From a virus (lineage: Duplodnaviria > Heunggongvirae > Uroviricota > Caudoviricetes): a stretch of DNA of 38,523 nt. The stretch lies in the IMG/VR virus record IMGVR_UViG_3300028797_000094, positions 1 through 38,523 of that record; one strand, written 5' to 3'. The notes below the pieces were generated by a model. The model did no database searches. It saw only the letters and a program-made list of their open reading frames with translations, and was not told where the DNA came from. Below are positions 2 to 36,781 of the stretch, piece by piece (positions within the stretch are counted from its first letter, which is position 1; every line of letters begins with the position of its first letter). Position numbers and translations under genes: made by a program.

Positions 2-619
2 GAAGATTTATTTGTAGGTCATGCAGATATAGTACTATCACATAATACTATTGCAGGAATTCAAATGGGTCAAATTATAACTACACTTGGTTTTGAAATG
101 GATGAAATCTTAGCTAAATCAACTTTATTTATTAATGGTCATTTACATAATGGTTCTTGGGTTAAAAAAGATAGAATTTTAAATATTGGTAATTTAACTG
201 GTTTTAACTTTTCTGAAGATGCAACTAAATATTCTCATAATGTAATTATTTTAGATACTAATACTTTAAACTTAGAATTTATTGAAAATCCTTATGCTTA
301 TAATTTCTATAAACTTGAAATACATTCAGAAAAAGATTTAGAACAATTATATAAGTTAAAAAAGAATGCAGTATTACAAATTAAATGTGATGAACAATAT
401 TTAGATGATTTAAAGCAAATTTTAGCAGATGAAATTAATGAAATTGTAAATTCTCGTGTTATTACAATTTATCAAAAGAATGAACAAACTGTAAATGATG
501 AAGAAAAAATTGATTTAAATGCAAACCCAATTGAAAAGTTTATTGAGTTATGTAAAACTAAATTCACAGATAGTAGAATTTTAGATGAAGAATTGGCTGA
601 AATTTGTAAACAAGGATAA
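2..619 (+). CDS. SbcD/Mre11/T4 gp47-like metallophosphoesterase nuclease (5'-partial)
   Basis: Frame is open from base 2 (EDLFVGHADIVLSHNTIAGIQM...). Phosphoesterase motifs VLSH and FINGHLH are followed by NIGNLTGFNFSED. Lies just upstream of an SbcC-like ATPase. Confidence 0.8.
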   Translation, partial: EDLFVGHADIVLSHNTIAGIQMGQIITTLGFEMDEILAKSTLFINGHLHNGSWVKKDRILNIGNLTGFNFSEDATKYSHNVIILDTNTLNLEFIENPYAYNFYKLEIHSEKDLEQLYKLKKNAVLQIKCDEQYLDDLKQILADEINEIVNSRVITIYQKNEQTVNDEEKIDLNANPIEKFIELCKTKFTDSRILDEELAEICKQG

Positions 620-622
620 TAT

Positions 623-916
623 ATGGAAGAACGTAATCTTAGTAAATGCTGCAATTTACAATATCAAACACAATATACACAACAAGTAGTAATAAATGGA
701 GTTCCACAAAATTCAGGGGAAGTGCAAGTACCAATCTTAACTTGCCCAAGTTGTGGACATGTTATAGTACAATTTAATCCAGGAACTACTATGGAACAAG
801 TTTTTGCTACTTGCGAAAATGAGATTTCTCATCAAATAAATTATTGTGTAAAATGTGGTCAAAAAGTAAATTTTCCACAAATGATAACTATTGCAGTAGA
901 AAATACGCAGGAGTAA
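623..916 (+). CDS. Small Zn-ribbon hypothetical protein
   Basis: CPSCG and YCVKCG cysteine pairs; AAGGA RBS upstream. Confidence 0.6.
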   Translation: MEERNLSKCCNLQYQTQYTQQVVINGVPQNSGEVQVPILTCPSCGHVIVQFNPGTTMEQVFATCENEISHQINYCVKCGQKVNFPQMITIAVENTQE

Positions 917-944
917 AATATTTTCAAAAATATTGTATAATAAT

Positions 945-1370
945 ATGTTAAAAGATAATAAAAAGGCTTGTAAAAAGCTATATAAATATTATAAAAAAGA
1001 GTTTGAAGATTGTAAAAAATGTATGTTAGAATTCAGACCAAATTTTTTATTTGGACTTGAAACTTTAATGCTTTATTTACAATATATGCAAGACACAATT
1101 GTCTTAACAAAATCAATAAAAGAAGACGATGAAGAAATGAATAGTACAACATTTACAACTATTGGTGCTGTATTAATGTGCTATTCAAAATATAAACAAT
1201 GTATTTTAGAAGGTACAACTATTATAAATGATAAATCTTTACCTGAAGAAGAAAGGACTAAGTTGTATAATGCTGTGCTTAAACAGGCAAAGTTAAATTG
1301 GAATACATTGTGGAATACTGTTTCAATCGCAATGGAAGGTTGGTACGTAAATGAATGTTTTATGAAATAA
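945..1370 (+). CDS. Hypothetical protein
   Basis: Open frame (TTG 933 or ATG 945 start) fills the gap between genes. Start is uncertain. Confidence 0.55.
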   Translation: MLKDNKKACKKLYKYYKKEFEDCKKCMLEFRPNFLFGLETLMLYLQYMQDTIVLTKSIKEDDEEMNSTTFTTIGAVLMCYSKYKQCILEGTTIINDKSLPEEERTKLYNAVLKQAKLNWNTLWNTVSIAMEGWYVNECFMK

Positions 1371-3267
1371 AGTAATTTTACATAACTTTGGTAGTTATAA
1401 TCATGCTGAAGTTGATTTACTAGACAAAGGTTTTTGTTCTGTTGTTGGTGAAAATAATTATAAAAAAGATAATGCTTTATCAAATGGTTCTGGAAAATCT
1501 TTTCTTTGGTCTGCATTATGTTATACTATAACAGGTGAAACAATTCAAGGACTTAGGAAGAATTTAAAGAACTTAAATAATTCTGATGATAATACAGGTT
1601 ATACTGCTGTTGATATTACAGTTGATAATGATCACTATGTAATCACAAGATACTTTGCTCCAAAATCAAATTTAACTATTGTTAAGAATGATGTTGATTT
1701 AAGTGGTAAAACATTTACAGAAAGTGAAAAGATTTTAGGTGAACAATTACCGGCATTAACAAAAGAATTAATTTCATCAACTGCAATTCTTGGTCAAGGT
1801 TTGCCAACTAAGTTTTCAAGCTTAAAACCTTCTGGTCGTAAAGATTTACTTGAAAAATTAACTAATTCAGACTTTATGATTGAAGACGTTAAGAATAGAA
1901 TTTCGGCAAGACAAGAAGTAATCTTAGGTCATATTAGAACTATTGATGATGCATTATTAGTTGCAAATACTAAATTATCTACAACAAATAATCAACTTGA
2001 TCAAGTTTTAAAAGATATTCAAAATTTCCAAAGACCTGATTATAATAAGTTAATTTCTGACACTGAAAAAGATTTAATAAATTGTAATACAGAATTAGCT
2101 GAAGTAAATGCAAATATCAAAACAAATGATAGTTATTTAGAACAAGCAAATAATGATTTATTAAAATTTACTAATGAAAAGAGTACTGAAGTTATTAATG
2201 TAACAAATAAGTTTAATAATGACTTAAATCAAAAAGCTGGTGAAAAACAAAAAATCTTACTTGATATAAATACTATTTCTGGTGAATGCACAGCTTTACA
2301 AAATGAAATTCGTAGATTAAAATCTATCACTGATATTTGTCCAACTTGTGGCCAAAAAATTCCTGGCAAAGAAAAGCCAAGCACTACATTACAAGAAGAG
2401 CAATTACAAAGTAAAATAAACGCTAAAGCTGCTTTAAATGAACAATTAACTAAAGTTCAAAATGAAGCAACAATTATTCAAGAAAGTTTGGAAGCTGAGA
2501 AAAAAGTAGTTAATGATAGATATGATGCTGCTATTAATCAAATTAAAATTCAACAAGTAGATTTAAAGAATTTTGCAACTCAACAACAAACAAGATTAAA
2601 TACTTTAAATCAAAGAATTCAAAATTTAAATACTGGCTTAGCAAAATTAAAATATGAAAAAGATCATAATGAGCAAGCATTTACTAATTTACAAAATTCA
2701 AAAGGTGCACTTGAAACTGAAACTAAGCGTTTAACAAAAGTTATTGAAGATGAAACTGCTAAAAAAGAAGAAGCAACTGCACACTTAGATATAATTAGAA
2801 AAATGGATGCTTTAGCTAAACGTGATTTTAGAGGATATCTATTATTAAATATTATTGAATATCTAAATAAGAAAGCAAAAGAATATAGCCAAGTTGTTTT
2901 TGGAACAGATGAATTAAATATTTATTTAGATGGAAATGATTTAAATATTTCTTATTGTAATAAACTATTAGATAATTTATCTGGTGGTGAAAGACAACGT
3001 GTAGATTTAATTGTTCAATTTGCTTTAAGAGACTTATTAAGTACGCAATCAAATTATAGTTCTAACATTTTAGTTCTTGATGAAATTTTTGACAACTTAG
3101 ATAGAGTTGCAACAGAAAATATTTTAAATTTAATTACAACAAAACTTTGTGATATTGAATCAGTATTTATTATTTCACATCATGCTGACGAATTAGAGTT
3201 AAGCTATGATTCTGAATTAAAAGTAGTTAAAAATTCTGATGGTATCAGTGAAGTATTTGCAATATAG
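1351..3267 (+). CDS. SbcC/Rad50/T4 gp46-like SMC-family ATPase (638 aa with TGA=W)
   Basis: ATG1351 gives MNVL(W=TGA 1363)NKVILHNFGSY. Contains Walker A SNGSGKS, long coiled coil, zinc hook CPTC, signature LSGGERQR, Walker B LVLDE and H-loop IISHH. Confidence 0.92.
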
Positions 3268-3277
3268 GAGACTTAGT

Positions 3278-4102
3278 ATGCTTTGAAGAAAACCTGCTGA
3301 CATGAAATACACTGACATGTGTATTTATATTGATGAGAATATTCCAAAAATTGGTGGTGAACCTGGAGCTTATCCAGATATAGAAGATACAGTATATAAT
3401 TATTTATACTTACTAACAAAAGCTTTAAGTATTAAAAAGCGTATGATCCAAAATTTTGAAGATTATGATGGTTATGCTTTATACGCCGCAACAAGATTAT
3501 TTGTAGCAATTCAAAAGAATTATCAAAATCAAGGCAAGACAATTAAAGGTAAAGTAATTAGACCGATTAAATCTTGTCTAAATTATACAAAAGCTCTATT
3601 ATATCCAATGAAAGTTGAATATATGAGAGAAACTTTTGCACAAGTAATTTCTGAAGAATTTGCTTCTAAACAATTTGATGCATATACATTTAAAGAAAAG
3701 CTTAAAGAACAGGCAGCTGAAGCCCAATCAAATATATCATTGCAAATAGATATCACTGATACTATTAAGAGCATTCCTTATTATATTGAAAAGACTTTAG
3801 CTAGCTCACCATTTCATAAAAATTCACCTGAATGAAAAAAGCTTAAAATAACAATCTTATTAAATTTCTTACATGGAATAAATACAACTGGTAGTATTGA
3901 TTGAAATCCTGTAACAGTTTTACTCTGAAAATTACCAAAATCTTTAATTGGTTATGTTAAAATTCTATTAACTGAATTCTATACTTTATTTAAAACAGAA
4001 ATGATGGATTGTTTTACAAATAATCAAATGAGTGATGAAATGTTAGAAAAACTTATTTCTTCACCAGATGGTATGTATAAGGAAGATTATGAAAACGACT
4101 AG
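3278..4102 (+). CDS. Hypothetical protein, possibly a divergent sigma-factor-like (gp55-type) regulator (274 aa, 4 TGA)
   Basis: GGAG RBS, then ML(W)RKPADMKYTD..., read through TGA 3833 to TAG 4100-4102. The helical pattern EDTVYNYLYLLTKALSIKK...DGYALYAATRLF...SCLNYTKALLYPMKVEY loosely recalls sigma region 2. The ORF is solid; the function is speculative. Confidence 0.35.
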
Positions 4103-4487
4103 TATTAATGATAGTATAAATTCCTTACATTTATCTGACATATATTCATTAATGTTATTCATTTTGTATAAAGTGCAGGAAATACCAGATTATGCAGTTT
4201 TAAGTGAATTATGTTATTTATGTGATGGAAATAATTTAACAAGAATTTTAACTTATTTTGCAGGTAAAACAGTTAAGTTTCCAACAGAAGCTGAAATGTC
4301 TGTTTTAACAAATGCTTTATTGCTTTATCAATATGTAAATATTGAACACAATGCTTTTGTAGAAGCTCAAGCAAAACTTGAAAATGTTACACCAAAGCAA
4401 CGTGAAAAGATTACTGAGCTTTACTTAAAGATCCTACCAATTATGGCAAATTATAATATTGATAGGAGTAATATGAAGCATGAGTAA
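4089..4487 (+). CDS. Possible Mor/C-family transcription activator-like protein
   Basis: LSELCYLCDGNNLTRILTYFAGKTVKFP resembles the Mor-family 'a..l...fGG..iyiP' segment. AAGGAAG lies upstream of ATG 4089. Confidence 0.45.
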   Translation: MKTTSINDSINSLHLSDIYSLMLFILYKVQEIPDYAVLSELCYLCDGNNLTRILTYFAGKTVKFPTEAEMSVLTNALLLYQYVNIEHNAFVEAQAKLENVTPKQREKITELYLKILPIMANYNIDRSNMKHE

Positions 4488-4695
4488 ATTTGATGAAGCA
4501 TCAAGAACTTTTGAAACAAGATTATTATTTATAAAAGAATTATTTACTAATAAATATTCACAAACGGATATTATGGCACATTGTATTCAGCATAAGTTAG
4601 ATGAATCATTAAAAAAATATATTAATGAATTAGAAAAACATATGTGAAATTTAGATGGCAAAGATCCAATGGATATTCTAAAGAAAATAGATTAG
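4480..4695 (+). CDS. Hypothetical protein (71 aa, 1 TGA; absent from ORF track)
   Basis: GGAG RBS, MSKFDEASRTFETRLLFIKE...HM(W)NLDGKDPMDILKKID*. Exactly fills the gap to the next gene. Confidence 0.7.
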
Positions 4696-4705
4696 GAGAC
4701 AAATT

Positions 4706-5035
4706 ATGGCATTACAATCAAATATAATTACTGATATTAGTTCTGCTACAAAAATTCCAGTAAAGGTTTTAAATTCAATTAGTACAAAAGAAGTTCTTTG
4801 TATTGGTAGTGCAATTCATGATGCTATTGAAGCAAAAGAAGATGTAGCACTTTTAAATATTGGAATTGGAACATTAAGTGTAAATATTGCAGACGGTCAA
4901 TGTAAGTTTATTCCAAGTCAAGAATTAAAGAGTACAATTAAAAAGTGTATTAATAATAAAATTGACCCGCTTGAAGAAACTTTAGAACAAGAAATTATTG
5001 ATAAGCTATTAAAGACATACGAAGAGGTATTCTAG
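4706..5035 (+). CDS. Hypothetical protein
   Basis: AGGAG RBS; tightly coupled to its neighbours. Confidence 0.7.
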   Translation: MALQSNIITDISSATKIPVKVLNSISTKEVLCIGSAIHDAIEAKEDVALLNIGIGTLSVNIADGQCKFIPSQELKSTIKKCINNKIDPLEETLEQEIIDKLLKTYEEVF

Positions 5036-5036
5036 T

Positions 5037-5591
5037 ATGGTTGATGAAGAATTAAAAGATATTGCAGCTCAAACACCAACTGAAGATGAAGCAAGAGTAC
5101 CTGCTTTAAAAATGGTAGAACTTGATGCTGAAGCTAAAGATCTTTTAAACCAACTTATTGTTGAAACTGATGTTAATAAAACAAAAGATTTAACTAATCT
5201 TTTTAATCAAAATCAAAATAAGAAAACAATGGTCAGAGTTGATAAGTTAAGCCAATTAATGGATACTTTAACTGATCAAGCAATTAAAAGATATCAAGAA
5301 CGCCCAGATGAAATTTCAAATCAAGAACTTTTCCTTGGCTTAAAGACTATTCAAGATATTATTGAAAAATCTCGTAGACAAGTTATGGGAGCAGATGAAA
5401 AACCACTTATTCAAATTAATCAACAAAATAATGATTTTTCAGGAACTCAAACACAAACTAAAGAATCAAGGGAACGTGTTATGGCTGCAGTAAATAGTAT
5501 TTTAAAAGGTATTATGCCTGAAAATGCACCAATTTATACAACACCAACTGTTGATGCTGATGAGGAGAAAGATGATGACCAACAAGATTAA
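5037..5591 (+). CDS. Hypothetical helical protein, possibly terminase small subunit
   Basis: Two long amphipathic helices followed by a short PLIQINQQNN strand, an architecture seen in TerS proteins. No diagnostic motif. Confidence 0.3.
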   Translation: MVDEELKDIAAQTPTEDEARVPALKMVELDAEAKDLLNQLIVETDVNKTKDLTNLFNQNQNKKTMVRVDKLSQLMDTLTDQAIKRYQERPDEISNQELFLGLKTIQDIIEKSRRQVMGADEKPLIQINQQNNDFSGTQTQTKESRERVMAAVNSILKGIMPENAPIYTTPTVDADEEKDDDQQD

Positions 5592-5871
5592 AGAAGTTTT
5601 AAAAAAGTTAAAAATTGATAAAACAGGAAATTATGAAAATCATTTTTATATTGTTTATTTAGACAATAGTAATGATTATGCAAAAGCTTATACTCAATTA
5701 GAAGATAATGCAATTAATACTGAATATCCAAACTTTGAAACAAATACAAGCGGAACAACTACTAAAGTTATCAATTATTTTGAATTAGACTTAGATAATA
5801 TTATTTATAATATATTCTTAATTGCTGATTTTAATAATGATAAGTATTATATTAAAATTGGAGAAAAATAA
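5572..5871 (+). CDS. Hypothetical protein
   Basis: GAGGAG RBS before ATG 5572; the stop overlaps the next start (TAATG). Confidence 0.7.
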   Translation: MMTNKIKEVLKKLKIDKTGNYENHFYIVYLDNSNDYAKAYTQLEDNAINTEYPNFETNTSGTTTKVINYFELDLDNIIYNIFLIADFNNDKYYIKIGEK

Positions 5872-6242
5872 TGAGCTTAACTGTTGATTATGCAGTGGAA
5901 AGAACTTTTACACAAACTTTAGAAATTGATGATCAAGGTAATACTTGTATAAAAGCTACTGGTCTTGTTAATGGTCTTGGTGAAGCAGATTTCTATATGT
6001 TTATTAGAACAATTGCTGGTGCAGTAACAACTTTAACAGTTGGCCCAATTACACCAGACTTTGCAATTTTAGTAAATGGTTTTAAGGTAGAAGCTAAGCA
6101 ATTTAAATATAATGAAAAACGAATTAAAAAAGAAATTAATACTTTTTTAAATGGTAATAATATTGAAAATGCTTATGAAATTTCAGTTAATGAAGGTATA
6201 GAAAATTTTCCAAATATTGTTGATATGTTTGAAAATTTATAG
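5871..6242 (+). CDS. Hypothetical protein
   Basis: GGAG RBS; translationally coupled to the previous gene. Confidence 0.7.
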   Translation: MSLTVDYAVERTFTQTLEIDDQGNTCIKATGLVNGLGEADFYMFIRTIAGAVTTLTVGPITPDFAILVNGFKVEAKQFKYNEKRIKKEINTFLNGNNIENAYEISVNEGIENFPNIVDMFENL

Positions 6243-6251
6243 GAGTTATTT

Positions 6252-6617
6252 ATGGCAGTAAAAGATGTACAAGAATATTATTATAGTGTATTAGAACAAT
6301 ATTTAGCGGCTAAAGATGATTTAAAAGATTTTGAAAAAGGCTTAGCTGATGGCTTTGTAACTGAAGAACAGGTACAAGAATTAGCTGAAGAGCTTGCTAA
6401 TATTGAACAAAATAAAGAACGACTTGAATATATTTTCTTCTTATTAAATATGCCAAATCGTAAAAATAAAAAGCCTAAATATACACTACAGCAACAAAAA
6501 CTTTTAAATAGATTAAATAAACACAATAATGATGGTGAAGCTGTTTTGGCTGAAAATGAACAAGCTATCACAAATATGAAAAATAAAATTTCTAATTTGC
6601 AAAATGAACAGCATTAA
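6252..6617 (+). CDS. Hypothetical coiled-coil protein
   Basis: AGGAG RBS; followed by a terminator-like hairpin. Confidence 0.7.
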   Translation: MAVKDVQEYYYSVLEQYLAAKDDLKDFEKGLADGFVTEEQVQELAEELANIEQNKERLEYIFFLLNMPNRKNKKPKYTLQQQKLLNRLNKHNNDGEAVLAENEQAITNMKNKISNLQNEQH

Positions 6618-6633
6618 GCTGTTTATTTTTTTT
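6607..6633 (+). terminator. Putative intrinsic terminator
   Basis: AACAGC-attaa-GCTGTT stem followed by a T-run. Confidence 0.5.
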
Positions 6634-6667: not shown

Positions 6668-6679
6668 TTTGCTAAATTA
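6668..6679 (+). promoter_or_regulatory. TTTGCTAAATTA motif copy 1 (putative phage promoter)
   Basis: Intergenic, after a terminator, about 20 nt before ATG 6700. Confidence 0.7.
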
Positions 6680-6699: not shown

Positions 6700-7428
6700 A
6701 TGATTATAACAGATTTAAATTTATTACAAACTCCAGCTGAACCTCTTGAGTTTTTAACTGAAGCTGGCACACAACGTGAAGAGGGTGAAGAAATAATTGC
6801 AAAATTAAAAGCAGCAATGGAAGAAGAAAAATTAGTCGTTCTTACTGCACCTCAAATTGGAATTAATAAACGTATTTTTTGTATTAGATTTGCAGACCAA
6901 ATTAAAGCATTTATTAATCCAATTATTACTAAAAAAACTGGTAGCATTATCGGCCCAGAAACATTTAATTCACTTCCTGGTAAAGAAATCTTAATTGCAA
7001 GACCAGAAGAAATTAGAGCTGTTTATTACACAGATGATTTTAAATATGAAGATAATAAATTTTTAAAAACAGCTGCAAGATTATTTGATCAACAATGTCA
7101 AGTATTAGATGGAATTTTACCAAATGAATTAGGTTTAGTTTCAGACATTGAAGAAGATGGTTCTTTATGGGATTTAACAGATGATGAATTTAAACAAGTA
7201 GTTGATGTTTATAAAGAATTTGTTAAAACTAAAACTAAAGCTTTTAATGAAGCAATTTCTGAAGCTGAACAAGGAGCTTATAAAAATCTTAAGTTCACTG
7301 AAGACGTTATTAATGGTCGTACTGAAGTACATGAAGACCCAAGAAGAATTAGAGAGCAACAAAATAAAATTACTCAAGCTCAAAATAAAGAAACATTTAA
7401 TAACTTTTTAAGAAAGAAGAAAAAATAA
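6700..7428 (+). CDS. Peptide deformylase-fold protein, catalytically degenerate
   Basis: LTAPQIGINKRIF, FINPII and ARLFDQQCQVLDGIL align to PDF motifs, but EGCLS has become ETFNS and HExxH is lost. Confidence 0.8.
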   Translation: MIITDLNLLQTPAEPLEFLTEAGTQREEGEEIIAKLKAAMEEEKLVVLTAPQIGINKRIFCIRFADQIKAFINPIITKKTGSIIGPETFNSLPGKEILIARPEEIRAVYYTDDFKYEDNKFLKTAARLFDQQCQVLDGILPNELGLVSDIEEDGSLWDLTDDEFKQVVDVYKEFVKTKTKAFNEAISEAEQGAYKNLKFTEDVINGRTEVHEDPRRIREQQNKITQAQNKETFNNFLRKKKK

Positions 7429-7643
7429 TGCCAAATAAAGAAGAAATTATTAAAGATTTTTATGGACGTTTTTTAGGAATAATTGAAACATGTCCAAATG
7501 GGGACCAAATTGCAAGAGTTTGGTCAAGTAGACAAATTGTTGGTTTTTATCGTAAACAGTATGACCATACTACTGATTTTTATGGTAGAGTTGTTTCACA
7601 GGGAAATACTGTTATTTCATTGATTTACAAGAATTTAAAATAA
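7428..7643 (+). CDS. Hypothetical protein
   Basis: Coupled start (TAATG); internal repeat DFYGR occurs twice. Confidence 0.65.
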   Translation: MPNKEEIIKDFYGRFLGIIETCPNGDQIARVWSSRQIVGFYRKQYDHTTDFYGRVVSQGNTVISLIYKNLK

Positions 7644-7656
7644 GGAGATAAGAAAG

Positions 7657-7833
7657 ATGCCAAAAACAAAAATTATTAGTTTAGAAATTCCTGACTATTT
7701 AAGACAAGCTCTTAAAAAAGAAGCATTTGATAGAGACTTATCACTTTCTGCATGTATTAGACAACTATTAATTGAAAAGTTAGAAATAGAAGTGCCTGAA
7801 CAGGAGAAAGAAGATGGCAAAGAAACTGAATAA
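7657..7833 (+). CDS. Ribbon-helix-helix (CopG/Arc-like) DNA-binding protein (58 aa; absent from ORF track)
   Basis: AAGGAG RBS. MPKTKIISLEIPDYLRQALKKEAFDRDLSLSACIRQLLIEKL has the alternating beta strand plus two helices of RHH proteins. Confidence 0.75.
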   Translation: MPKTKIISLEIPDYLRQALKKEAFDRDLSLSACIRQLLIEKLEIEVPEQEKEDGKETE

Positions 7834-9628
7834 AACAGATAGAATGCTTGTTATTGTAGAAAGCCCAACTAAAGCAAAAAAGATTACTAAGATTTTAGAT
7901 GATGCTGGCTATAAAGTAATGGTTATGGCAAGTAAAGGTCATATAATGACACTTGCTGATAAACGAACAAGCTACAAAAATTCTGGTGTTTTTCCTGAAA
8001 ATGATTTTGATTTAAATTTACAAATAGATGAAGATCATTATCAAATAGTTCAAAATTTAAAAGAACAGGCTGACCGTGCATCTAAAGTTGTTATCTTCTC
8101 AGACGCTGACCGTGAAGGAGAATTAATTGGTTGGTCATTAGTTAAATTTTTGAAATTAAAGCCAGAATTATACTATAGAGCTTATGCTCATGAGATTACA
8201 CCTAAAGCAGTTGTACAAGCTATTGATAATGCCTTAGAATTAGACCAAAATTTAGTCCAGGCCGCATTAACAAGACTTTCTATAGATAAATTAATAGGCT
8301 ATGCTTTATCACCGATAGCGAGAAATTATTTAGGTGCAAGATCTGTTGGTCGCTGTCAATCTATTGGCTTAAAAGTAATTGTTGACCGTGAAAAAGAAAT
8401 TCAAAATTTTATTCCAGAAATTTATTTTGAACTATTTTTAAACTTCAGTAAAAACAATGTTCCTTTTAAAGCTAAGTATGACAGTGAAAGAATAACTGAA
8501 AAATATAAAATTGATAAAGTTATTGAAGATTGTAAAGGAAATGATTTTGTTATTTCAGATATTAAAAAACGTGAAAAAAAAGAATCACCAAAACCACCTT
8601 TCTGTACTGCAACTTTCCAACAAGAAGCAGCAAGTAAATTAGGAATTGGTGTTAAAGAATCAATGTCAGTTGCACAAAAGTTATTTGAAGATGGTAAAAT
8701 TAGTTATCATAGAACTGATGATACTACACTTGCGCCTGATTTTATTACTGAATTAACAAATTATGTTAAAACAAATTATGGAACTGTAGTTGCTCCACGA
8801 GTTGGCAAATCTGATGCTTTAGCTCAAAATGGTCATGAAGCAATTAGAATTACTGACCCAGCTTTAACTCCAGAATTATTTAATGAACAAAATTCTAATA
8901 ATATTCATCAAAAAGTATATAAACTTATTTGGCAAAGAACTATTGCATGTGTTCTCCCTGATGCAAAATTTTCTGAAACTAAATATGTAATTACTAATAA
9001 TAGTCATAATTTTATAATGGTCTCAAATGAATTAATTGAACCAGGCTTTAAACAAGTATATAATTATGAAAAAGATGATGAAGAAATCATTAAGGAAACT
9101 TTTGATAAAGATGAAGTTTTACAAAACTGTGAATTAAAGATGGAAACTAAATCTACACAACCTCCTGCAAGATTTAATGAAGCAACATTAGTTCAACAAT
9201 TAAAAAATCTTGGAGTTGGTAGACCTTCAACTTATGCAACAATTGTAGATACAGTTGTAAGTCCTTTACGAGGCTATGCAACAGTTGAAGATAAAAAAAT
9301 TAAGCCTACTGATAAAGGAATTCAATTATCAGAATTCTTAGATAGAGCTTTTCCAAATTTAATTAACTTAAATTATACAAAAGAAATGGAAGAAAGTTTA
9401 GATAAAATTGCAGCAGGTAATTTAGATAGATTAACATATTTAAATGAATTTTTCAAAAATTTAGAAGATTCTATTAAGACAAATTCAGAACAATTAGATA
9501 TGCCAGACTCTACAGATATATGCCCAGAATGTGGTGCAAAATTAGTAATTAGAAGAAGCCGCTTTGGTAAATTATTTAAAGGCTGTTCTAATTACCCTAA
9601 CTGTAGACACATTGAGAATATAAACTAA
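7814..9628 (+). CDS. topA: DNA topoisomerase I (type IA)
   Basis: Toprim IVESPTKAKKI, SDADREGE, SVGRCQS, catalytic ISYHRTD, GHEAIRIT, GVGRPSTYA and a C-terminal CPECG...GCSNYPNC Zn ribbon. Confidence 0.97.
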   Translation: MAKKLNKTDRMLVIVESPTKAKKITKILDDAGYKVMVMASKGHIMTLADKRTSYKNSGVFPENDFDLNLQIDEDHYQIVQNLKEQADRASKVVIFSDADREGELIGWSLVKFLKLKPELYYRAYAHEITPKAVVQAIDNALELDQNLVQAALTRLSIDKLIGYALSPIARNYLGARSVGRCQSIGLKVIVDREKEIQNFIPEIYFELFLNFSKNNVPFKAKYDSERITEKYKIDKVIEDCKGNDFVISDIKKREKKESPKPPFCTATFQQEAASKLGIGVKESMSVAQKLFEDGKISYHRTDDTTLAPDFITELTNYVKTNYGTVVAPRVGKSDALAQNGHEAIRITDPALTPELFNEQNSNNIHQKVYKLIWQRTIACVLPDAKFSETKYVITNNSHNFIMVSNELIEPGFKQVYNYEKDDEEIIKETFDKDEVLQNCELKMETKSTQPPARFNEATLVQQLKNLGVGRPSTYATIVDTVVSPLRGYATVEDKKIKPTDKGIQLSEFLDRAFPNLINLNYTKEMEESLDKIAAGNLDRLTYLNEFFKNLEDSIKTNSEQLDMPDSTDICPECGAKLVIRRSRFGKLFKGCSNYPNCRHIENIN

Positions 9629-9633
9629 TTTTA

Positions 9634-9645
9634 TTTGCTAAATTA
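9634..9645 (+). promoter_or_regulatory. TTTGCTAAATTA motif copy 2
   Basis: Intergenic, upstream of ATG 9684. Confidence 0.7.
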
Positions 9646-9683
9646 ATTGATTTGAAAAATCATAAATATAAAAGGAGATATAT

Positions 9684-10748
9684 ATGATTAATTTATTAAC
9701 TCCGATAGAAAAATTAGACAGAAATGCTTGGATAAATGCTTATATTATTTTACCAAATGGCATATCTCAAAAATTTCCAGACTATGTATTTAGCTTAACT
9801 TTTAATTCAAATAATAGTATGGCTAATATTATAAGTTTATGCAAAAAACTTTATAATTGTGTTTGTGCAAAAACAATTGATGCATCAGCTTATGACATAC
9901 TTTGTACACTTGCTAAAGATACTGATTTTGTAGTTAAAAATAGAGATAGTTTTTCTCCACATAGTACACACAAAAGTAGACATATTGATTATGAACTAGC
10001 ATGTAAGTATTTTATTGATTGGACAAATGAGATAGGAATAATTTGGAATGATGAATTATTATCAAGCCAAGGGGCTGAAGAACTTAAAAAAACATACTTA
10101 GGTCAAATTATTACTATGTCAAAGATGTTTAAATCACAACAATATAATAATGCAACAAAAGCTAGAACAAATGCACCTAGTCAAGGAATTAAGGGACAAC
10201 CAAAAAATGCTTATAAATCTACTGGAAGTCAACTTAATAATGCTGTTGGACTTTTAAGTACACCTGGTCAAAAAGAAAATGTTCCAAAAACAATTTATAA
10301 AATTGTCGCTGATCAAATTGGAGCAAATATTCCAGCTATATTTGTAAAACCAGTTGATAATCCAGCACATGGTTTTCATGCTCGTGCAAATGCAAATAAT
10401 GAGCTGATTATAAGAGCAAGCTCTGGAAATGGCTATACAGATTTACCTTGCTATTTTACTGATTATGATAGTGCTAAAGTTTATTTACAAAAATTCTTGG
10501 CAAGTGGTAAAGGTAATAAATTCAATAATTGGACAATTAAGCCTGTGCTTGCCAGAAAAAGTGGCTATTATAAATTTAAAACTGAATTTGGACCTGTTTA
10601 TCTTGGGGCAGAAAAATTAAATGAACAACTTGGCATAGTTGAAGGTAGTGAAATTTTACAAGAAGCCCCAGAAGAATTTGAAGAAGATTATAATTTTAAA
10701 ATAGATAATCCAATTGAATTTGCTGAAATAATGATGAAATATGAATAA
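9684..10748 (+). CDS. Hypothetical protein
   Basis: AAGGAG RBS, 354 aa, acidic C-terminal tail after EKLNE/EILQE. Confidence 0.75.
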   Translation: MINLLTPIEKLDRNAWINAYIILPNGISQKFPDYVFSLTFNSNNSMANIISLCKKLYNCVCAKTIDASAYDILCTLAKDTDFVVKNRDSFSPHSTHKSRHIDYELACKYFIDWTNEIGIIWNDELLSSQGAEELKKTYLGQIITMSKMFKSQQYNNATKARTNAPSQGIKGQPKNAYKSTGSQLNNAVGLLSTPGQKENVPKTIYKIVADQIGANIPAIFVKPVDNPAHGFHARANANNELIIRASSGNGYTDLPCYFTDYDSAKVYLQKFLASGKGNKFNNWTIKPVLARKSGYYKFKTEFGPVYLGAEKLNEQLGIVEGSEILQEAPEEFEEDYNFKIDNPIEFAEIMMKYE

Positions 10749-10762
10749 AAGGGAGAATTAAA

Positions 10763-12073
10763 ATGAAAATATTTAAGGAATCTAAAAGACTTGTAGAAGA
10801 TGCAAATACACCTAATGTTAACGATATTTCAACAGACAAACTTGCTGATATTGTTCAAGATGAAATTGCAGATGAAGGTAAAAAATTAACAGATGCAGAA
10901 GCTAAACAAGCAGCTCAACAAGTTAAAACTCTTGGTGCTAAAATGGCTGACACAAGCTTAGCTACAGAAAATGCTTTAACAAAAGCTCTTGATAAATGTT
11001 TAAATTTTGCTCTTGATGAAGATGAAGATGGTTGAAATAACCTTTTAATCGTTGGTTTACCAGGCTCTGGAAAAACTGCTATTGTTAACCAATGAGGCGA
11101 TCTTCGTAATGTAAAAATTGTTTTTATTGATGCTAAAAATAGAGATTTACCAACTGCTATTTCTGGTATGCCTGCAAGAGATACAAATGACCCAACTAGT
11201 GTTGCAATGTTAAGAACTACTTATCTTAATCCATTAGACGATTTAAGAAAACTTAATAAAAAAACTGGAGAAGTACTTGAAGATGAAGAGCCTTATAGAG
11301 GTGTTGTATTATTCTTAGATGAATTAAACCGTGCTAAAGGCGATATTCGTGGTTCAGTTTTAACTTTAATTAATGAACATAAAGTTGCTAATGGTAAAAA
11401 TGGTGCTACAAGATATTTTGATAAATTATTATTTACTGTAGCTGCTATTAACCCAACAGAACAAGGCGCTTCAGCAATTGATAAATTAGACTCTGCTGAA
11501 AAATCTCGTTTCTTAAAACACTTAGATTATGATAGTACAGTAAGTGCAGCTAAAAACTTCTTTGAACAATATTTTAATACAAAGATTAAATATATTCTTG
11601 ATGATAAAGATAATCCAAATTTTGCAAAAAGATATATTAAAGCTGTCAGACAAAAAGAATTAGTATTATATCTTTTAACAAGTGTTCAACCTGTTTTCAA
11701 ATTTGATGATAGAGAAGAATATCAAATTACTCGTCGTGAAGATAGAAACTTATTATGTCAACGTACTTTAACAGATGCTATTAAAGCTTGTGATGGAACT
11801 GTTAAGGATTTTATTGAAACTTGTGAAGAAGCTAATTTCTTACCTAAAAAGTTAGATATGATTAAGAGAATTTTAAATGGCTATAAAGATCCAGATGTTG
11901 AACTTCCAAAAGATGCTGCTGCACCTAAACCTGAAAGTGATATAGAAGATAATCCAGAATTATTTGATGGTAAAATAAATACTGGTAGTGGAAGAGATAA
12001 TATTTTCCAACAAAGTGCATCTGATGTTAAATCAACTGTAGCTAGTGCAGTAGATAGCTGGGACGATATGTAA
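10763..12073 (+). CDS. MoxR-family AAA+ ATPase (436 aa, 2 TGA)
   Basis: Read-through gives G(W)NNLLIVGLPGSGKTAIVNQ(W), the Walker A motif. Also Walker B LFLDELNRA, VAAINP sensor and LDSAEKSRF arginine finger. Confidence 0.9.
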
Positions 12074-12086
12074 AAAGGAGACATTT

Positions 12087-13295
12087 ATGTCAAAATTCAG
12101 TAAATTATTCGAAGCGCCAATAACACAAACTATGTCAGATAGAGAATTAAATTTACATGAAAAAATTAGACAAATTTTAATAGATGACGGTCATGGCGCT
12201 CATCATAAAAAATTTGCTGAATTATTTCAATATTTTGATGTAAATATTATCTCAATTGATGAAGATCCTGAATGTACTGCTTATATGGATGATAAGCATT
12301 ATACAATAGGTATTGGTGAAGGTTTTGTTTTTTCACCAGCTTATTTATGACAACTTGGTGTTATTGTTCGACATGAGCTAGCACACTTTATGCTTAGACA
12401 TACTTTAAAATATATGCAATTATTAAGTAAGGAAGCAATGGAACATTTTAATTATAGTAGATCAGTGCATGGTTTATTAAATATTATTGCTGACTTTGAA
12501 ATCTCTAATAAAGTATATTCTGTTAAAGATAAAGGTGTTATTCGTAAATTAATGCTTAATGGGAAAATTATACAAGGTTTAGTAACAGAAGATAGTAGAT
12601 CAGATTGAAAGAGACTTTCAATTGAACAAATGTATAAAAAGCTTGAAGCTGAGATTTATGCAGATCAACAAAAATTAAATCAATTAGCTAATAGTAATAA
12701 TGGTGGTGATTTAAGTGCTACAAATGATTATGTTACAGCTAATATTAGAAAAGCCTCTTTAAAGTATGCATATATGGATACATCTAAACCACGTTTTAAA
12801 TCTGTTCCAAACTGATTAGCTGGTTTAGAAAAAACTGTTCCAGCTATTAAAAACTATCCTGATTTTATGAAAAAATTATTTGCATCTGTTTATGCAGAAT
12901 TTGCTGATGAATCTGAAAAAGTTTTAGAAGATGCAATTAAAACAGTAAAAGATTCTGCTATTATTGAACCTGCTATTATTAAAAAGATAAAAGTTTTTAC
13001 ACCAGAAGAAAAATTAGTAGTTCTTTGTATTTTAGCTTCAATTTTACATAAAGACAAAGCTGTTGATGATGATGAACAAATAAAAATGACTATTAATGTT
13101 AAGCATCAAAAACATTCACCAGAATATGTTGCTTCTTATAATGATACAATAGCAAACTTAAGTGATAAAGATATTAATACTTTAGATTTATATCAAGTTT
13201 TACGTGAGCTTGAAGCTATTATAAAACAAAATCATGAAGAAAATATTACTGGTATTATAGAAGATGCAGCTGCACATGAAAAAGGAGATGAATAA
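12087..13295 (+). CDS. HExxH zinc metallopeptidase of the MoxR/vWA-associated type (402 aa, 3 TGA)
   Basis: Four track fragments are in one frame. CTAYMDD, then GVIVRHELAHFMLRH, then NIIADFEIS (third ligand region). Confidence 0.85.
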
Positions 13296-13298
13296 TTT

Positions 13299-15086
13299 AT
13301 GAAAATGAGTGATTTCACAAATAAAAAATTAGCTGATTTATCTCCAGAAGCTCGTCGTGCTGCAGTTGATGCTATTAATGATATTATTGCTAGTCGTCAA
13401 AAAAACGGTGGTATGGGCAGTTTTCCACTTGGTGGTGGAGGAGATGTTGATATAGATATTGATCCAGATCTTAATAAGCCTGAACCTCAAAATAATGATG
13501 ATATGGAAGACCTTTTAGATGATATTGATATTGATATTAATGACCCAGAAGATCTTTTACCAGAAGAAGATGGAAAAAATGGTAAAGGTAAGGGTAAAGG
13601 TAAGGGTTCTTCAAAAGATGATCAAGATTCAGATGAAAAGTCTGATGACAATGATAATGAAGGTGATGGCACAGGTAAAGACGGTCAAGACAAAGATGAT
13701 AATAAAGCTGATACTAAAGCTAATGGTCAAGGACAAGGTAAAGACCAAGATAAAGATACTAATAGTCAAAATGATAGTGGTGCTGGTGAGCAAGGTGAGC
13801 AAGATTCTGATGAAGATAAATCAGGTCAAGGAAGCTCCAATCAAAAGGGTACTGATGACAACTCATCTGACCAAAAAAATCGTAATGGTGCCTCAGATAA
13901 TATAGATTTTGATACTGGTAGTACTAATAGCGAGCAAGATACTGATAATGATAAAAATACTAGTAGTAAAGCTCAACAAGAATATCAAGGCTATGAAGAA
14001 AATGAAAATGATCCTCGCTTTGATCCAGATGATACAAAACAGCAATCTGGTGGAGATATTGCTGGTAATCAAAATAAAATAGACTATAAACAACATCAAA
14101 TTAATAGAACAATAAATGAAATTAAAGAAACTATTAAAGCAGCTAAAAATAATCCAAAAATTAGTCAAGATACTATTGATAAATTAGAAAAAGATTTAAA
14201 AGACCTTCAAGAAAATAAAGACAAATATTCTAAGATGACTGAAGATCAACTTGGTGATGTTTTAAATAGTTATATTAATGATATTGATGCTGTAAGACCT
14301 GTTTATAAAACTCCTGATACTTCTAAAAGAGGTACTCGTATCAAAAAATTAACTAATGATGAAAAATTCCAAAAAGCATTAGATGATGAGGAATTTGAAA
14401 ATATTCGTAAAGCTGCACTTGATGCTGAAAAAGAAAAGTATCTAAAAGATAGAGAAAATGAAATTAATAAGTATAAAAATTTTGATACTTTACATGATTT
14501 TGAAATTGATCTATATGATACAATAAAAGACCAAGTACAAGAGTACGAAAATAGTATAGATTCTTATTCAAGAATAAATTCAAGATATGAAGATGAAGAT
14601 AATGTTATTATGCCTGGTGAACTTATAACAGATGAACAAAGACTTGAAAAACCAACTATTCAAGTTTATTATGACCAATCAGGCTCTTGAAGTTCAGCTG
14701 ATACTAAACGTGGAGATAAAGCACTAAAAGTTTTGCAAGAAATGGTAGAAAAAGATTTAGTTAAAATTCAAATCTATTATTTTGCTAATAGGATTGCAAC
14801 CGATAGAAATACTTATATTGGTGGTGGTACTACTGCTTGACCACAAATTTGTAATAATATTGTAAATAGTGCAGCTAAAAATGTTATTTTAATGACTGAT
14901 ACAGATATGGATAGCCAAGCTGCTAGCGGCCCTGTTATAGAGGTTCCAGGTTGTGTATGAATTATTTGAAAAAATGGTCAACAAAGTCTAAATATTGCAA
15001 AAAAATTAAGAGGTGTTGCAGATGGTTCTAAAGGCAATCGTCAATATGCATTTGATTCACGCGCACCATTAGATGATGAAGATTAA
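13299..15086 (+). CDS. vWA-domain protein with long acidic low-complexity linker (595 aa, 4 TGA)
   Basis: MIDAS motif YYDQSGS(W), GGGT and ILMTD. D/N/G/Q/S/K-rich disordered region at about 13430-14060. Confidence 0.85.
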
Positions 15087-23923: not shown

Positions 23924-23949
23924 AATAGTTTTAAAAATATTGTATAATA
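23921..23949 (+). promoter_or_regulatory. 29-bp element ending TTGTATAAT, near-identical to 914..942 (second promoter class)
   Basis: 27/29 identity with 914..942; contains TATAAT; lies upstream of the terminase RBS. Confidence 0.55.
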
Positions 23950-23969: not shown

Positions 23970-26036
23970 ATGATGTCTGATGAACAAGAATTATTACAGC
24001 AATCTTTAGCTGGATTATCTCCTGAAGAACGTGCACAGGTTTTAAAAATCTTACAACAATATGCACAAGAAGGAGAATCTGCTTTAGAAGAAGACTTAAA
24101 ATGAGCTGACTGAAAAGAAATTCCTGTTGATATAGAAACATTTATTCATGATCAACAATATCTTGGTAAAGGTTTATATGATGCAGAAGGTCGTTTTACA
24201 GTTTACCCATATTGAGAAGAAAAGTTAAAAGAAGTTTTTCCAACTAATACAACTACCAGATACAATAATATTGTGTTAACTGGTTCTATTGGTATTGGTA
24301 AATCTTTCTTTGCTGTTCTTTGTATTTTATATATGCTTTATAGAATTATGTGCCTAAAAGACCCTTATACTTTTTTTGGTTTACAATCTATTGATAAGCT
24401 TTCTATTTCATTTATGAATATTACAATTGAAAATGCTAAAGGTGTAGCACTTTCAAAAATGAATGAACTATTATTATCAAGTGATTGATTTATGGCACAT
24501 GGCGAAATGAGAGGTGTAACTAATTTAGTTTATCATCCAGATGCACGTATTGAATTTATTGCTTCATCAAGTAATAATCAAATCATAGGTCGTTGTATTA
24601 TTTGTAATTTTTCAGATGAAGTTAACTTCTCAACAACAAGTAATGTTGAAAAAGCCAAAAGAAAAATGCTTAAACTTATTACACAAGTTGATGCCCGTAT
24701 GCGTTCACGTTTCTTACGTGGAACTTATTTACCAACTTTAAATATTTTAGCTTCTTCAAAAGATACAGACCAAGCATTCTTAGATGATTATATTAAGAAT
24801 AAACGTGAAACAAATTCTCAAACTACTTTAATTGTAGATGAACCGCAATGGGTAGTTGATGACCGTAAAAATTCTGATAGAAAATTCTGAGTTGCAGTTG
24901 GTAATAAATTTTTATCAAATGAGTTATTACCACTTGATGTTTCTCCAGAAAAAATTGAAGAAATGCGTGGTCAAGGTTATGACATGTGGGAAGTTCCTAT
25001 TGGATATTTAGAAACTTTCCAACAAAACTTAGATGAAGCAATTTGTAGTATCATCGGTATTGCTACTGCAAGTACTTTAAAATATATTTCTGGTGAAAGA
25101 TTAAATCAAACAAAAACTGATAGTTATCAAAATCCATTTACAAAAGACGTTATTGAAGTTGGAAATGGAATTGAAGATCATTATCAATATTCTAATTTCT
25201 TTGATTTATCTAAGGTTTCACCAGATGATTTAAGAAAACCTTTATTTATGCACCTTGACTTGTCTTTGTCAGGAGACATGACTGGTATTGCTGGTGTATG
25301 AATTGATGGTTGGAAACAAACTGCTAAAGTAATTCCTGGACAAACATCTGCAGAAGATGAAATTAGTTATTCAAGGGATTTACAATATAAATTAGCATTC
25401 TCTGTTTCTGTTAAAGCTCCAAAAGGTTTTCAAGTATCGTTTGAAAAAACAAGAAACTTTATTAGATGACTTCGTGAACAAGGTTTTGATATTAAAGTAA
25501 TTTCATCAGATACATTTAACAGTGCTAATATTCGTCAAGATTTAGCAGCTGATGGATTTAAGACTGAAATACTTTCTGTCGACCGTGTTGAAGCTTCTAC
25601 TAAAACACAACTTGCTTATGCATATTTTAAAACAGCAATTTATGAACGCCGTATTAAAATATATAAGAAATGTGATTTATTAACAAAAGAAATTACTGAA
25701 CTTGAAAAACTTTCTGATGGTCATATTGAGCACCAAAATGCTGGTAAAACTGGTTCAAAAGACCAATGTGATGCAGTATGTGGTAGTTTATATATGGCAA
25801 GTAAATACTCAGAACAATATTCATATGAATATGGTGATCAACTAATTGAAGATATTAATGTCAATTTAGAAGATACTAATAATTCAATGGATAAAGCTAC
25901 ATTTATTCAAAATTTACAAAATGATTTACTTCAGATATGGCAAGAAGAAAATAAGGCTTTTAAAAACGCCGAGTTAAGAGACCAAGAAGAAGAATTATCA
26001 CTACAAGATATTGTAGATGGAATTATAGTCTTATAG
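23970..26036 (+). CDS. terL: Terminase large subunit (688 aa, about 7 TGA)
   Basis: Walker A VLTGSIGIGKS, Walker B NFSDEVN, ILASS motif III, nuclease MHLDLSLSGD, SSDTFNS and GSKDQCDAV. Directly upstream of the portal gene. Confidence 0.92.
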
Positions 26037-28659: not shown

Positions 28660-28671
28660 ATTGCTAAATTA
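28660..28671 (+). promoter_or_regulatory. aTTGCTAAATTA motif copy 5 (overlaps hairpin)
   Basis: 11/12 match; upstream of phoH. Confidence 0.6.
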
Positions 28672-28716: not shown

Positions 28717-29613
28717 ATGATAGAACAAAAGTACACAGGCTGAAAAAAATGAACTCCAACTCCAGAAGAATGAGTTGATTTTGCAGCTGAACAAATTGTT
28801 CCTTTTGAGCTTTTAGAAAACGAGTACTTATTAATTTATAATACTAAAAATGAACTAGAAGCTCAGTACATTAAAAAAGCTGGAAAGCTTAAAAAGATTG
28901 GTAGAAGTACAATTAAAATTGAACGAGAAGAAGAAAAGGAATTAATCATCACAGAAGGGCAAAAGAAAAAACGAACATCGACCAAGAAAAATAATGATGT
29001 TTATATGCCAAGAAATGATGAACAAATATGTGCTTTTAATTTAGTGAAAGATGATGATACTACAGTTAAATTATTATGTGGTACTTGAGGAACAGGTAAA
29101 ACAATGATACTTGTTGCTGCAGGTCTTGAAGCACTAAATCATGGAAAATTTGAAAAAATAATTTGAATTAGAAATAATGTTGATGTAGCAAATACTAAAG
29201 ATTTGGGAGCACTTCCTGGTGAAGTTATTGATAAGCTACTTCCATTCTTAGGACCATTTATTGATCACTGCGGAGAAAATAAAGTTAGAACAATGATTAA
29301 TAAAGGATCACTTTTAGTTGAGCCATTGCAATCTTTAAGAGGACGTAATTTTAAAAACTCATTAATTATATGTTCTGAATCAGAAAATTTAACTAAAGAA
29401 CATATACAATTAATTATTGCACGTGCTGCTGAAGGTAGTGAAGTCTGATTTGATGCTGACTTAAATCAACGTGATAAAAATGTATTTGAAAAATCAAAAG
29501 GTATTGAAACTTTAATAGATAGACTAAAAGGTAATGAACTTTTTGGTTATGTATATCTAATAAAATCAGAACGTTCTGCTACTGCAGCACTTGCTGATAA
29601 ATTAAACAATTAA
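28717..29613 (+). CDS. phoH: PhoH-family ATPase (298 aa, 6 TGA)
   Basis: PRNDEQ, CGT(W)GTGKT, DLGALPG, SLRGRNF, SESENLT, DADLNQRD and SERSATA. Confidence 0.93.
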
Positions 29614-31809: not shown

Positions 31810-31821
31810 TTTGCTAAATTA
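31810..31821 (+). promoter_or_regulatory. TTTGCTAAATTA motif copy 7
   Basis: Upstream of the protease-capsid operon; extends as TTTGCTAAATTAATAGTAAA, like the copy at 6668. Confidence 0.7.
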
Positions 31822-35079: not shown

Positions 35080-35096
35080 TCTGAAAGGTGAAACCT

Positions 35097-36779: not shown

Positions 36780-36781
36780 TT

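Follow-up and report, generated by a model that had tools for sequence, protein, structure and literature searches.

Phages of genetic code 4, in which TGA is read as tryptophan, have been described from Firmicutes and Bacteroidetes that use the standard code, and these phages have close relatives that use the standard code themselves (Borges et al., bioRxiv 10.1101/2021.08.26.457843; later Nat Microbiol 2022). The ~200-kb Jade phages of that study carry a 'code change module' that is written in the standard code and consists of a suppressor tRNA, a tryptophanyl-tRNA synthetase (TrpRS) and release factor 1 (RF1). In the Agate phages of the same study, TGA accumulates in structural and lysis genes by comparison with a standard-code relative of >90 % average nucleotide identity (ANI). 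The model proposed there is one of standard-code translation early and of the alternative code late; phages of hosts that are themselves recoded carry in-frame TGA in ~90 % of their genes. The DNA analysed here, a stretch of 38,523 nt that is referred to below as the window, makes up the first 38.5 kb of a 237,392-bp virus record (IMG/VR IMGVR_UViG_3300028797_000094; CheckV completeness 100 %) and belongs to a T4-like jumbo phage with TGA as tryptophan. TGA is placed unevenly among its genes, and a block of genes at 6700-10748 as well as the major capsid gene are without it. The pattern is probably that of a phage that switches the cell to TGA=Trp, in which early genes are TGA-free, late genes are permissive and the capsid gene is a special exemption; the block at 6700-10748 is the weakest example of TGA avoidance in the genome.

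The likeness to the Jade phages, which is one of features and not of phylogeny, extends to a genome of ~200 kb or more, TGA as tryptophan, a suppressor tRNA(UCA) and TrpRS in the standard code, scattered recoded structural modules, largely unrecoded replication genes and a predicted standard-code Firmicutes host. However, the Jade module has RF1 (in two described genomes), whereas this phage is without RF1 and has a Lon protease gene between tRNA(UCA) and TrpRS. Likewise, the Jade module is located upstream of the lysis cassette, whereas here the corresponding genes adjoin a tRNA array and the replication block. As in the Agate phages, the clade contains both standard-code and recoded genomes, and TGA is found at ancestral TGG positions of late genes and not of the replication machinery, although the relatives here are more distant (major capsid proteins 59-87 % identical) and the TGA share is graded. 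The tail tube is reported to be preferentially recoded in Agate and crAss-like phages (10.1101/2021.08.26.457843). Block-wise dual coding has been described in crAss-like phages (Mgcod, bioRxiv 10.1101/2022.06.29.495998). Those phages are alike in having a genome split into standard-code and stop-reassigned blocks; they differ in that the present phage is a T4-like myovirus whose blocks follow promoter type and not one contiguous late region.

The TrpRS:tRNA-Trp(UCA) pairs of the phages AP1 and HF2 have been shown to insert tryptophan at UGA (PMC12636597). Here too the TrpRS is co-located with a UCA tRNA, which has G73 as in the AP1 tRNA; the pair is a further natural candidate for UGA-reading orthogonal translation systems. 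The genome as a whole is an unusually clean and complete example of a published code-switch strategy, not a new principle. Its promoter dichotomy and capsid exemption add a little to that strategy without making it a system of a new kind; neither promoters nor the capsid gene come up in the Borges preprint (10.1101/2021.08.26.457843; 'capsid' occurs 0 times in its text).

Uneven use of TGA across the genome

In the comparisons below, G000 is the phage under study, G006 (the closest), G001 and G002 are recoded genomes, and G007 and G008 are standard-code relatives. Counts are written TGA/TGG and give the in-frame tryptophan codons per gene as read under code 4. The genome has a GC content of 29 %, the long open reading frames (ORFs) of the window are all on the + strand, and a T4-type head module (portal Gp20, S77 prohead protease and Gp23 major capsid protein) is recognised in the window by Pfam. 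TGA is tryptophan in this phage. With TGA read through, coding density in G000 goes up from 0.737 to 0.943 and its ORFs average 278 aa in place of 161 aa; the gain in density (0.74 to 0.94) is seen in G000, G001 and G006, and there is none in G008. TAA or TAG terminates every gene of the window, and none stops at TGA. TGA sites in the window are conserved TGG in relatives, at W111 of the MoxR protein (12/12), W174 of the peptidase (11/11) and W110 and W138 of the portal (29 and 34, respectively), and 32 TGA codons of G000 align with TGG in the standard-code G008.

An earlier reading, made from the sequence alone, had put about two thirds of the tryptophan codons in the window at TGA; the recount gives 85 TGA and 41 TGG (67 %). 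Its hand counts for individual genes are reproduced as well. The block at 6700-10748 is 0/8, split 1+1+2+4 over its genes, 2-1370 and the capsid gene (33682-35001) are each 0/4, phoH is 6/0, and the two genes at 35088-37564 that it called glycosyltransferases come to 15/2. The check for heterogeneity per gene that it had suggested was run, and one binomial rate fits neither the window (X2=56, 25 degrees of freedom (df); reached by 0 of 20,000 permutations, P<5e-5) nor the whole 237-kb genome (458 TGA, 478 TGG; X2=603, 226 df, P=4e-36). The three TGG-only sets named in that reading differ from the remaining window with a Fisher P of 1.4e-9, but they were picked post hoc and it is the genome-wide test that is unbiased.

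The distribution of genes is bimodal, and genes are either TGA-rich (43/8, 31/10, 21/2, 13/1) or TGA-free (0/13, 0/9, 0/8). Of 163 genes with at least two tryptophan codons, 80 are without TGA; these 80 hold 284 TGG and are clustered, the TGA-free genes forming 48 runs along the genome versus 82 expected (P<5e-5). To the TGA-free class belong the genes for DNA polymerase (0/13), NrdD (0/3), ligase (0/4), DnaB (0/2) and UvsX (0/2), as well as SSB and the genes of the switch kit described below. The tail fibre genes are TGA-rich (21/2 and 43/8).

The two classes differ at tryptophan, for which Cramér's V between TGA-free and TGA-rich genes is 0.82; for every other amino acid it is 0.10 or less. 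A foreign origin or a GC3 shift (in GC at third codon positions) of the TGA-free genes was rejected, codon usage being alike for all other amino acids. Within the TGA-rich genes TGG stands at 16 %, and other G-ending purine codons range from 3 to 16 % (AAG 16 %, GAG 9 %, CAG 6 %). Thus, TGG is as frequent as the commonest of these codons, which fits drift under A/T pressure; the TGG share of permissive genes fits neutral drift once a suppressor is available, and not positive selection for TGA.

TGA-free status carries over to orthologues, with an odds ratio of 37 (P=1e-10) for G006, where identity has a median of 74 %, and of 8 (P=1e-3) for G001, where it is 49 %. Between G000 and G006, TGA and TGG are exchanged at 40 of 136 conserved tryptophan sites of TGA-permissive genes, in which 79 % of new tryptophan codons are TGA. 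In TGA-free genes, 0 of 142 conserved tryptophan sites differ and 61/61 new tryptophan codons are TGG. Phylogenetic inertia, by which ancestral TGG would simply have been kept in the TGA-free class, is ruled out by this comparison of codon turnover; judged from the aligned codons, it is purifying selection that keeps TGG in this class.

The members of the clade can be set out in a series. At one end are standard-code genomes with 0 TGA, among them G008, in which TGA serves 59 times as a stop; light recoding, with ~14 % TGA in the head region, comes next, and heavy recoding, with ~80 %, stands at the other end. The TGA share of tryptophan codons in the neighbourhood of the head genes runs from ~14 % to 83 % across the clade, as if TGA had invaded it by degrees.

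Promoter-like boxes, the switch kit and the capsid gene

Two boxes were found by k-mer enrichment in the upstream regions of 28 TGA-containing versus 28 TGA-free genes. The motif TTGCTAAATTA is located upstream of ~20 of the 28 TGA-containing genes versus 2-3 of the 28 TGA-free genes, while TGTATAAT, contained in the conserved TATTGTATAATA, is located upstream of 13/28 TGA-free versus 1/28 TGA-containing genes. The late-type box is the phage-specific TTTGCTAAATTA and the early-type box is of the TATAAT type; in its form TATTGTATAATA, TG directly abuts TATAAT. There are ~38 intergenic copies of the early-type box on the + strand, nearly all of them ahead of TGA-free genes, that for DNA polymerase included. 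The first genes downstream of early-type boxes together hold 8 TGA and 61 TGG, and those downstream of late-type boxes 107 TGA and 41 TGG (P=8e-18). The association of box and TGA is replicated in G006 (P=1e-22) and in G001 (P=2e-3). A standard-code relative has the two boxes as well, in 17 and 15 copies, and the two-class transcription programme is therefore older than the recoding. The two conserved boxes thus predict TGA use gene by gene and predate recoding. In a scan with the generic sigma-70 consensus, matches were no commoner than in shuffled sequence, and the two promoter classes are therefore defined by the specific, conserved boxes described above. A strict search for TGnTATAAT stayed at chance level within the window.

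The switch kit consists of tRNA(UCA), Lon and TrpRS genes in one presumably early module, together with an array of 18 further tRNAs. The tRNA is of tryptophan type, with a length of 75 nt, a 7-bp acceptor stem (AGGGG...CCCCU), a 3-nt variable region and the discriminator G73; the acceptor end and G73 agree with the bacterial tRNA-Trp identity set. ARAGORN labels it SeC, but tRNA-Sec typically has a long variable arm and an extended acceptor/T-stem geometry; an identity as tRNA-Sec was rejected on the short variable region, the 7-bp acceptor stem of Trp type and the match to the general tRNA model. Lon lies between tRNA(UCA) and TrpRS, and Lon and TrpRS form an operon downstream of an early-type box. 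The TrpRS scores 317 bits against TIGR00233 (cut-off 177) and its gene is 0/1. The tRNA array, which includes tRNA-Trp(CCA), likewise lies downstream of tRNA(UCA). All kit genes are TGA-free, and the surrounding genome (~204-237 kb) is essentially TGA-free and abuts the start of the window on the circular map.

TrpRS is found in the recoded G000, G006 and G001 and is absent from the near-complete standard-code G007 and G008. Lon is present in G000 and G006; G001 and G002, though recoded, lack it, as do the standard-code G007 and G008. As a general partner of recoding it was rejected, since it is missing in G001 and G002. It is improbable that Lon works in the code switch, where it might remove host release factor 2 (RF2) or clear truncated products made while UGA suppression is incomplete, and so take, in this sub-clade, the place that RF1 has in the Jade module. 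Genome G001 (IMGVR_UViG_3300033463_000007) is complete and heavily recoded, with 483 TGA and 514 TGG, and has TrpRS and four detectable tRNAs. No UCA tRNA was found in G001 by ARAGORN, nor by Rfam over 80 kb, and ARAGORN in intron mode gave noise; its decoder may be hidden (e.g. intron-split) or supplied from elsewhere.

A robust exception among late genes is that for the capsid protein. It has 0 TGA in G000 and in 65/65 relatives (238 TGG). In the 19 relatives with recoded neighbour genes, the capsid gene holds 68 tryptophan codons and 0 TGA versus 28 expected from the neighbours; without the tryptophan site that was used in the retrieval pattern, there are 31 codons and 0 TGA versus 14 expected. 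The fraction of C-ending two-fold codons is 0.533 in the capsid gene versus ~0.13 in the genome and is the highest in the genome. A high share of C-ending codons is the usual mark of translational selection, and translational selection on codon choice acts in highly expressed genes. The capsid gene is like highly expressed genes in general in its codon bias and in its sole use of the efficiently decoded tryptophan codon; it differs in that the disfavoured codon is a suppressed stop, whose cost would likely lie in premature termination by host RF2 and not only in slow decoding.

These sequence features point to translational selection, rather than timing, behind the exclusion of TGA from the capsid gene. 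The suggestion in the sequence-only reading that some TGA-free genes are translated at a very high rate suits this gene, with its 0 TGA in 19 recoded relatives and top codon bias. Exclusion from the capsid throughout the recoded part of the clade implies a measurable and lasting cost of TGA decoding. This cost would probably come from competition by host RF2 and be visible only under the strongest selection. As a general rule, avoidance of TGA by abundant virion proteins was rejected, since the phage under study has 4/0 in the tail tube gene and 3/3 in the sheath gene. Among late-class genes, codon bias and TGA share are weakly correlated (rho=-0.22, P=0.10). The nearest cultured relatives of the capsid protein are those of phages of Bacillus, Listeria and Streptococcus, at ~28 % identity, which fits a Firmicutes host but is weak evidence for one.

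The block at 6700-10748 and competing explanations

In the code switch proposed here, genes behind TATAAT-type boxes, presumably transcribed by unmodified host RNA polymerase, would be written without TGA; these are the kit and the replication genes. With tRNA(UCA) made and charged with tryptophan, TGA would become readable. Genes behind TTTGCTAAATTA boxes, namely virion, tail-fibre, phoH and glycosyltransferase genes, would be expressed in this later state and would be free to carry TGA, and A/T mutation pressure in such permissive genes would drive TGG down to ~16 %. The capsid gene would be a late gene that excludes TGA, suppression being presumably less efficient than TGG decoding and translational selection being strongest there. 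The host would most likely be a Firmicutes-type bacterium of standard code. The sequence-only reading had taken TGA decoding to be time-dependent, with TGA-free genes translatable before the switch, which is in essence the model of Borges et al. (10.1101/2021.08.26.457843); genome-wide, the boxes, orthologues and selection support this, and for 6700-10748 itself the late boxes and the TGA in relatives speak against it.

Several points weigh against this explanation. The standard-code host is deduced from TGA avoidance, the kit, the standard-code relatives and ~28 % capsid similarity to Firmicutes phages, and the assignment of the TATAAT-type box to early use by host polymerase and of the other box to later use would follow from the logic of the motifs and the functions of the genes. 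Exceptions to the motif rule exist: the gene at 23970-26036 (688 aa, weak terminase-large-subunit matches, 7/4) and the portal (2/2) lie behind an early-type box, and three late-box genes are without TGA. No release factor was found, PF00472 being absent from the 237-kb record while positive controls fired, which leaves the competition by host RF2 unexplained. The P-value of the capsid test treats relatives as independent, though they share ancestry, and the tail tube and sheath indicate that abundance alone exempts no gene. Finally, 8/8 TGG in the block is improbable at the late-class TGG share of ~0.2 if codons are independent, and an unrecognised constraint is possible.

This last point bears on whether TGA is genuinely selected against at 6700-10748 in this particular phage, for example because the block is also transcribed early, by read-through or from an unrecognised promoter, and so has to be translatable ahead of the switch as the sequence-only reading proposed; this is considered unlikely. 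All eight of its tryptophan codons are TGG while late-box genes average ~72 % TGA, its topA belongs to DNA metabolism, as do the TGA-free replication genes, and its deformylase-like and 71-aa genes are TGA-free in G006 too. However, there is no early-type box at 6700-10748, and its units are bounded by a terminator-like hairpin and late-type boxes. Late boxes are also located upstream of the orthologues of the block in G006, and an equivalent of the 9634 box also in the standard-code G008. With these same boxes, the G006 topA and the next gene nevertheless carry TGA. The count for topA is 0/2 in G000, 1/1 in G006 and 2/0 in G001, with one in-frame TGA in G002; the gene at 9684 is 0/4 in G000, and its homologues in the recoded G006 and G001 are 3/1 and 3/4. 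These two genes hold 6/8 of the tryptophan codons of the block, and their TGA shares of 0.50 and 0.40 are mid-table among 44 orthologue trios. W107 of topA, a conserved tryptophan in the Toprim motif, is TGG in the window, TGA in G006 and TGG in standard-code relatives; the sequence-only reading had held that TGA in relatives at the same tryptophan positions would tell against its proposal, and W107 is such a position. Only eight codons are informative, and no codon-bias signal was found in 6700-10748. The block is accordingly placed in the TGA-permissive late class, and its TGG-only state, which rests on eight codons, is real but lineage-specific and not a conserved requirement.

A mosaic genome, in which the TGG-only genes had come in recently from donors of the standard code and would reflect history and not selection, is highly improbable. 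The sequence-only reading had named recent acquisition from a code-11 donor as a finding contrary to its own proposal. There are many standard-code relatives within the clade, and module exchange occurs: the module at 9684-15086 (the 9684 gene, a MoxR ATPase, a peptidase and a vWA protein) has 24-35 % identity to its closest relative between flanks of 80-94 %, which suggests module exchange or very fast evolution. Acquisition is thus possible for the fast-diverging 9684 gene, but is unsupported for topA, which is 94 % identical to its counterpart in the recoded G006, and for the TGA-free class. Genes of that class share the codon usage of the permissive genes for other amino acids and have orthologues, likewise TGA-free, across three diverged recoded genomes. 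They show no TGA/TGG turnover and their new tryptophan codons are all TGG, whereas turnover is fast in permissive genes.

A host with TGA as tryptophan in its own code (Mycoplasma- or Spiroplasma-like) would require no switch, and differences between genes would then be due to expression or mutation history. The A+T-rich genome (29 % GC) would be in keeping with such a host, as would the top bacterial match of the TrpRS, an 'uncultured Mollicutes' metagenome-assembled genome (MAG) at 49 % identity, although the TrpRS matches, none of them above 49 % identity, are taxonomically scattered and give no clue to the host. It would leave unexplained the 80 genes with 284 TGG and 0 TGA under purifying selection, and also why the phage has its own tRNA(UCA) and TrpRS, which are absent from standard-code relatives. 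Among genes that have two or more tryptophan codons, only about half carry TGA, versus ~90 % in phages of recoded hosts (Borges et al., 10.1101/2021.08.26.457843). Additionally, the capsid relatives are phages of walled Firmicutes and the phage carries c-di-GMP-I riboswitches. A host of this kind is therefore highly improbable.

Feature coordinates and further observations

The features of the window and of the switch kit are collected in Table 1. The deformylase-like, topA and phoH assignments of the sequence-only reading are supported by Pfam, whereas its RHH call for 7428-7643 has no family match behind it. Of its two glycosyltransferase genes, that at 35088-36779 is confirmed by Pfam, and that at 36782-37564 is not.

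Table 1. Coordinates of features; positions refer to the window unless marked 'genome', and counts are TGA/TGG.
Feature	Position	Strand	TGA/TGG	Remarks
End of large TGA-free early block	2-1370	+		Continues genome ~204-237 kb; early-type box TGTATAAT at 934-941
SbcC-like ATPase	1351-3267	+		Pfam
All-helical protein gene, no family	3278-4102	+	4/0	Adjoins gp46/47-like genes
Terminator-like hairpin	6601-6629	+		12-pair stem, then T-run; closes upstream unit
Late-type box TTTGCTAAATTA, exact copy	6668-6679	+		20 nt upstream of 6700 start codon
Peptide-deformylase-like gene	6700-7428	+	0/1	Pfam PF01327, 61.8 bits; under NCBIfam cut-offs
Small 71-aa gene	7428-7643	+	0/1	No family match
topA, type IA DNA topoisomerase	7814-9628	+	0/2	Pfam Topoisom_bac 368 bits, Toprim, Zn ribbon
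Second late-type box TTTGCTAAATTA	9634-9645	+		38 nt upstream of 9684 start codon
Fast-evolving gene, no family match	9684-10748	+	0/4	24 % identity to G006 homologue
Early-type box TGTATAAT	23941-23948	+		Ahead of 23970-26036 gene and portal
Portal Gp20	26046-28154	+	2/2	Pfam
phoH	28717-29613	+	6/0	Pfam PhoH 109.6 bits; late-type box at 28660, one mismatch
Late-type box	31810-31821	+		Upstream of operon of prohead protease and capsid gene
Prohead protease, S77	31845-33650	+	2/1	Pfam Peptidase_S77
Major capsid protein, T4 Gp23 family	33682-35001	+	0/4	Pfam PF07068, 86 bits
Pyruvyltransferase/glycosyltransferase gene	35088-36779	+	10/2	Pfam PS_pyruv_trans and Glyco_tranf_2_4; late-type box at 35068
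Gene downstream of glycosyltransferase	36782-37564	+	5/0	Without Pfam match
tRNA(UCA), Trp-type	genome 229814-229888			ARAGORN; Rfam tRNA 54.5 bits; early-type box ends 6 nt upstream
Lon protease, full-length	genome 229989-232358		0/2	LON N-domain, AAA+, lid, Lon_C 260 bits; early-type box upstream

The region 2-1370 contains a fragment of an SbcD-like gene (PHROG match; 0/1) and two small genes (0/0 and 0/3). Orthologues of phoH are 6/0 and 3/2. Apart from a small overlapping ORF at 4459-4695 (2 TGA), the six genes at 4068-6617 have no tryptophan codon at all and are thus uninformative as to TGA. Tryptophan is also nearly lacking from the orthologues of these genes in G006, G001 and the standard-code G008; since this is so even in G008, it is not an effect of recoding.

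The gene at 3278-4102 is the most consistently TGA-saturated of the 44 orthologue trios, with 4/0, 5/0 and 3/0 in recoded genomes and 0/3 in a standard-code relative, and is a candidate for a TGA-gated regulator. Its protein had no match in Pfam, in PHROGs or by tblastn against deposited phages, where a gp55-like late sigma factor was sought, and its AlphaFold model (pLDDT, the predicted local distance difference test, of 60) was too poor for a fold search.

Elsewhere in the genome, two small TGA-rich genes (7/1 and 9/2; function not assigned) at 135144-138996, each with its own late-type box, flank NrdD (0/3), so that at 135-141 kb both codes are interleaved gene by gene. A tRNA-like element of 89 nt, whose anticodon loop is abnormal (a two-base 'anticodon'), was called by ARAGORN at genome 110045-110133. 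Two tandem aptamers of the c-di-GMP-I (cyclic di-GMP) riboswitch are located at genome 221962-222035 (65 bits) and 222070-222149 (61 bits; gathering score 35). They precede a gene of 269 aa (222100-222909; function not assigned) and extend over its called start. These riboswitches suggest a host with c-di-GMP signalling.

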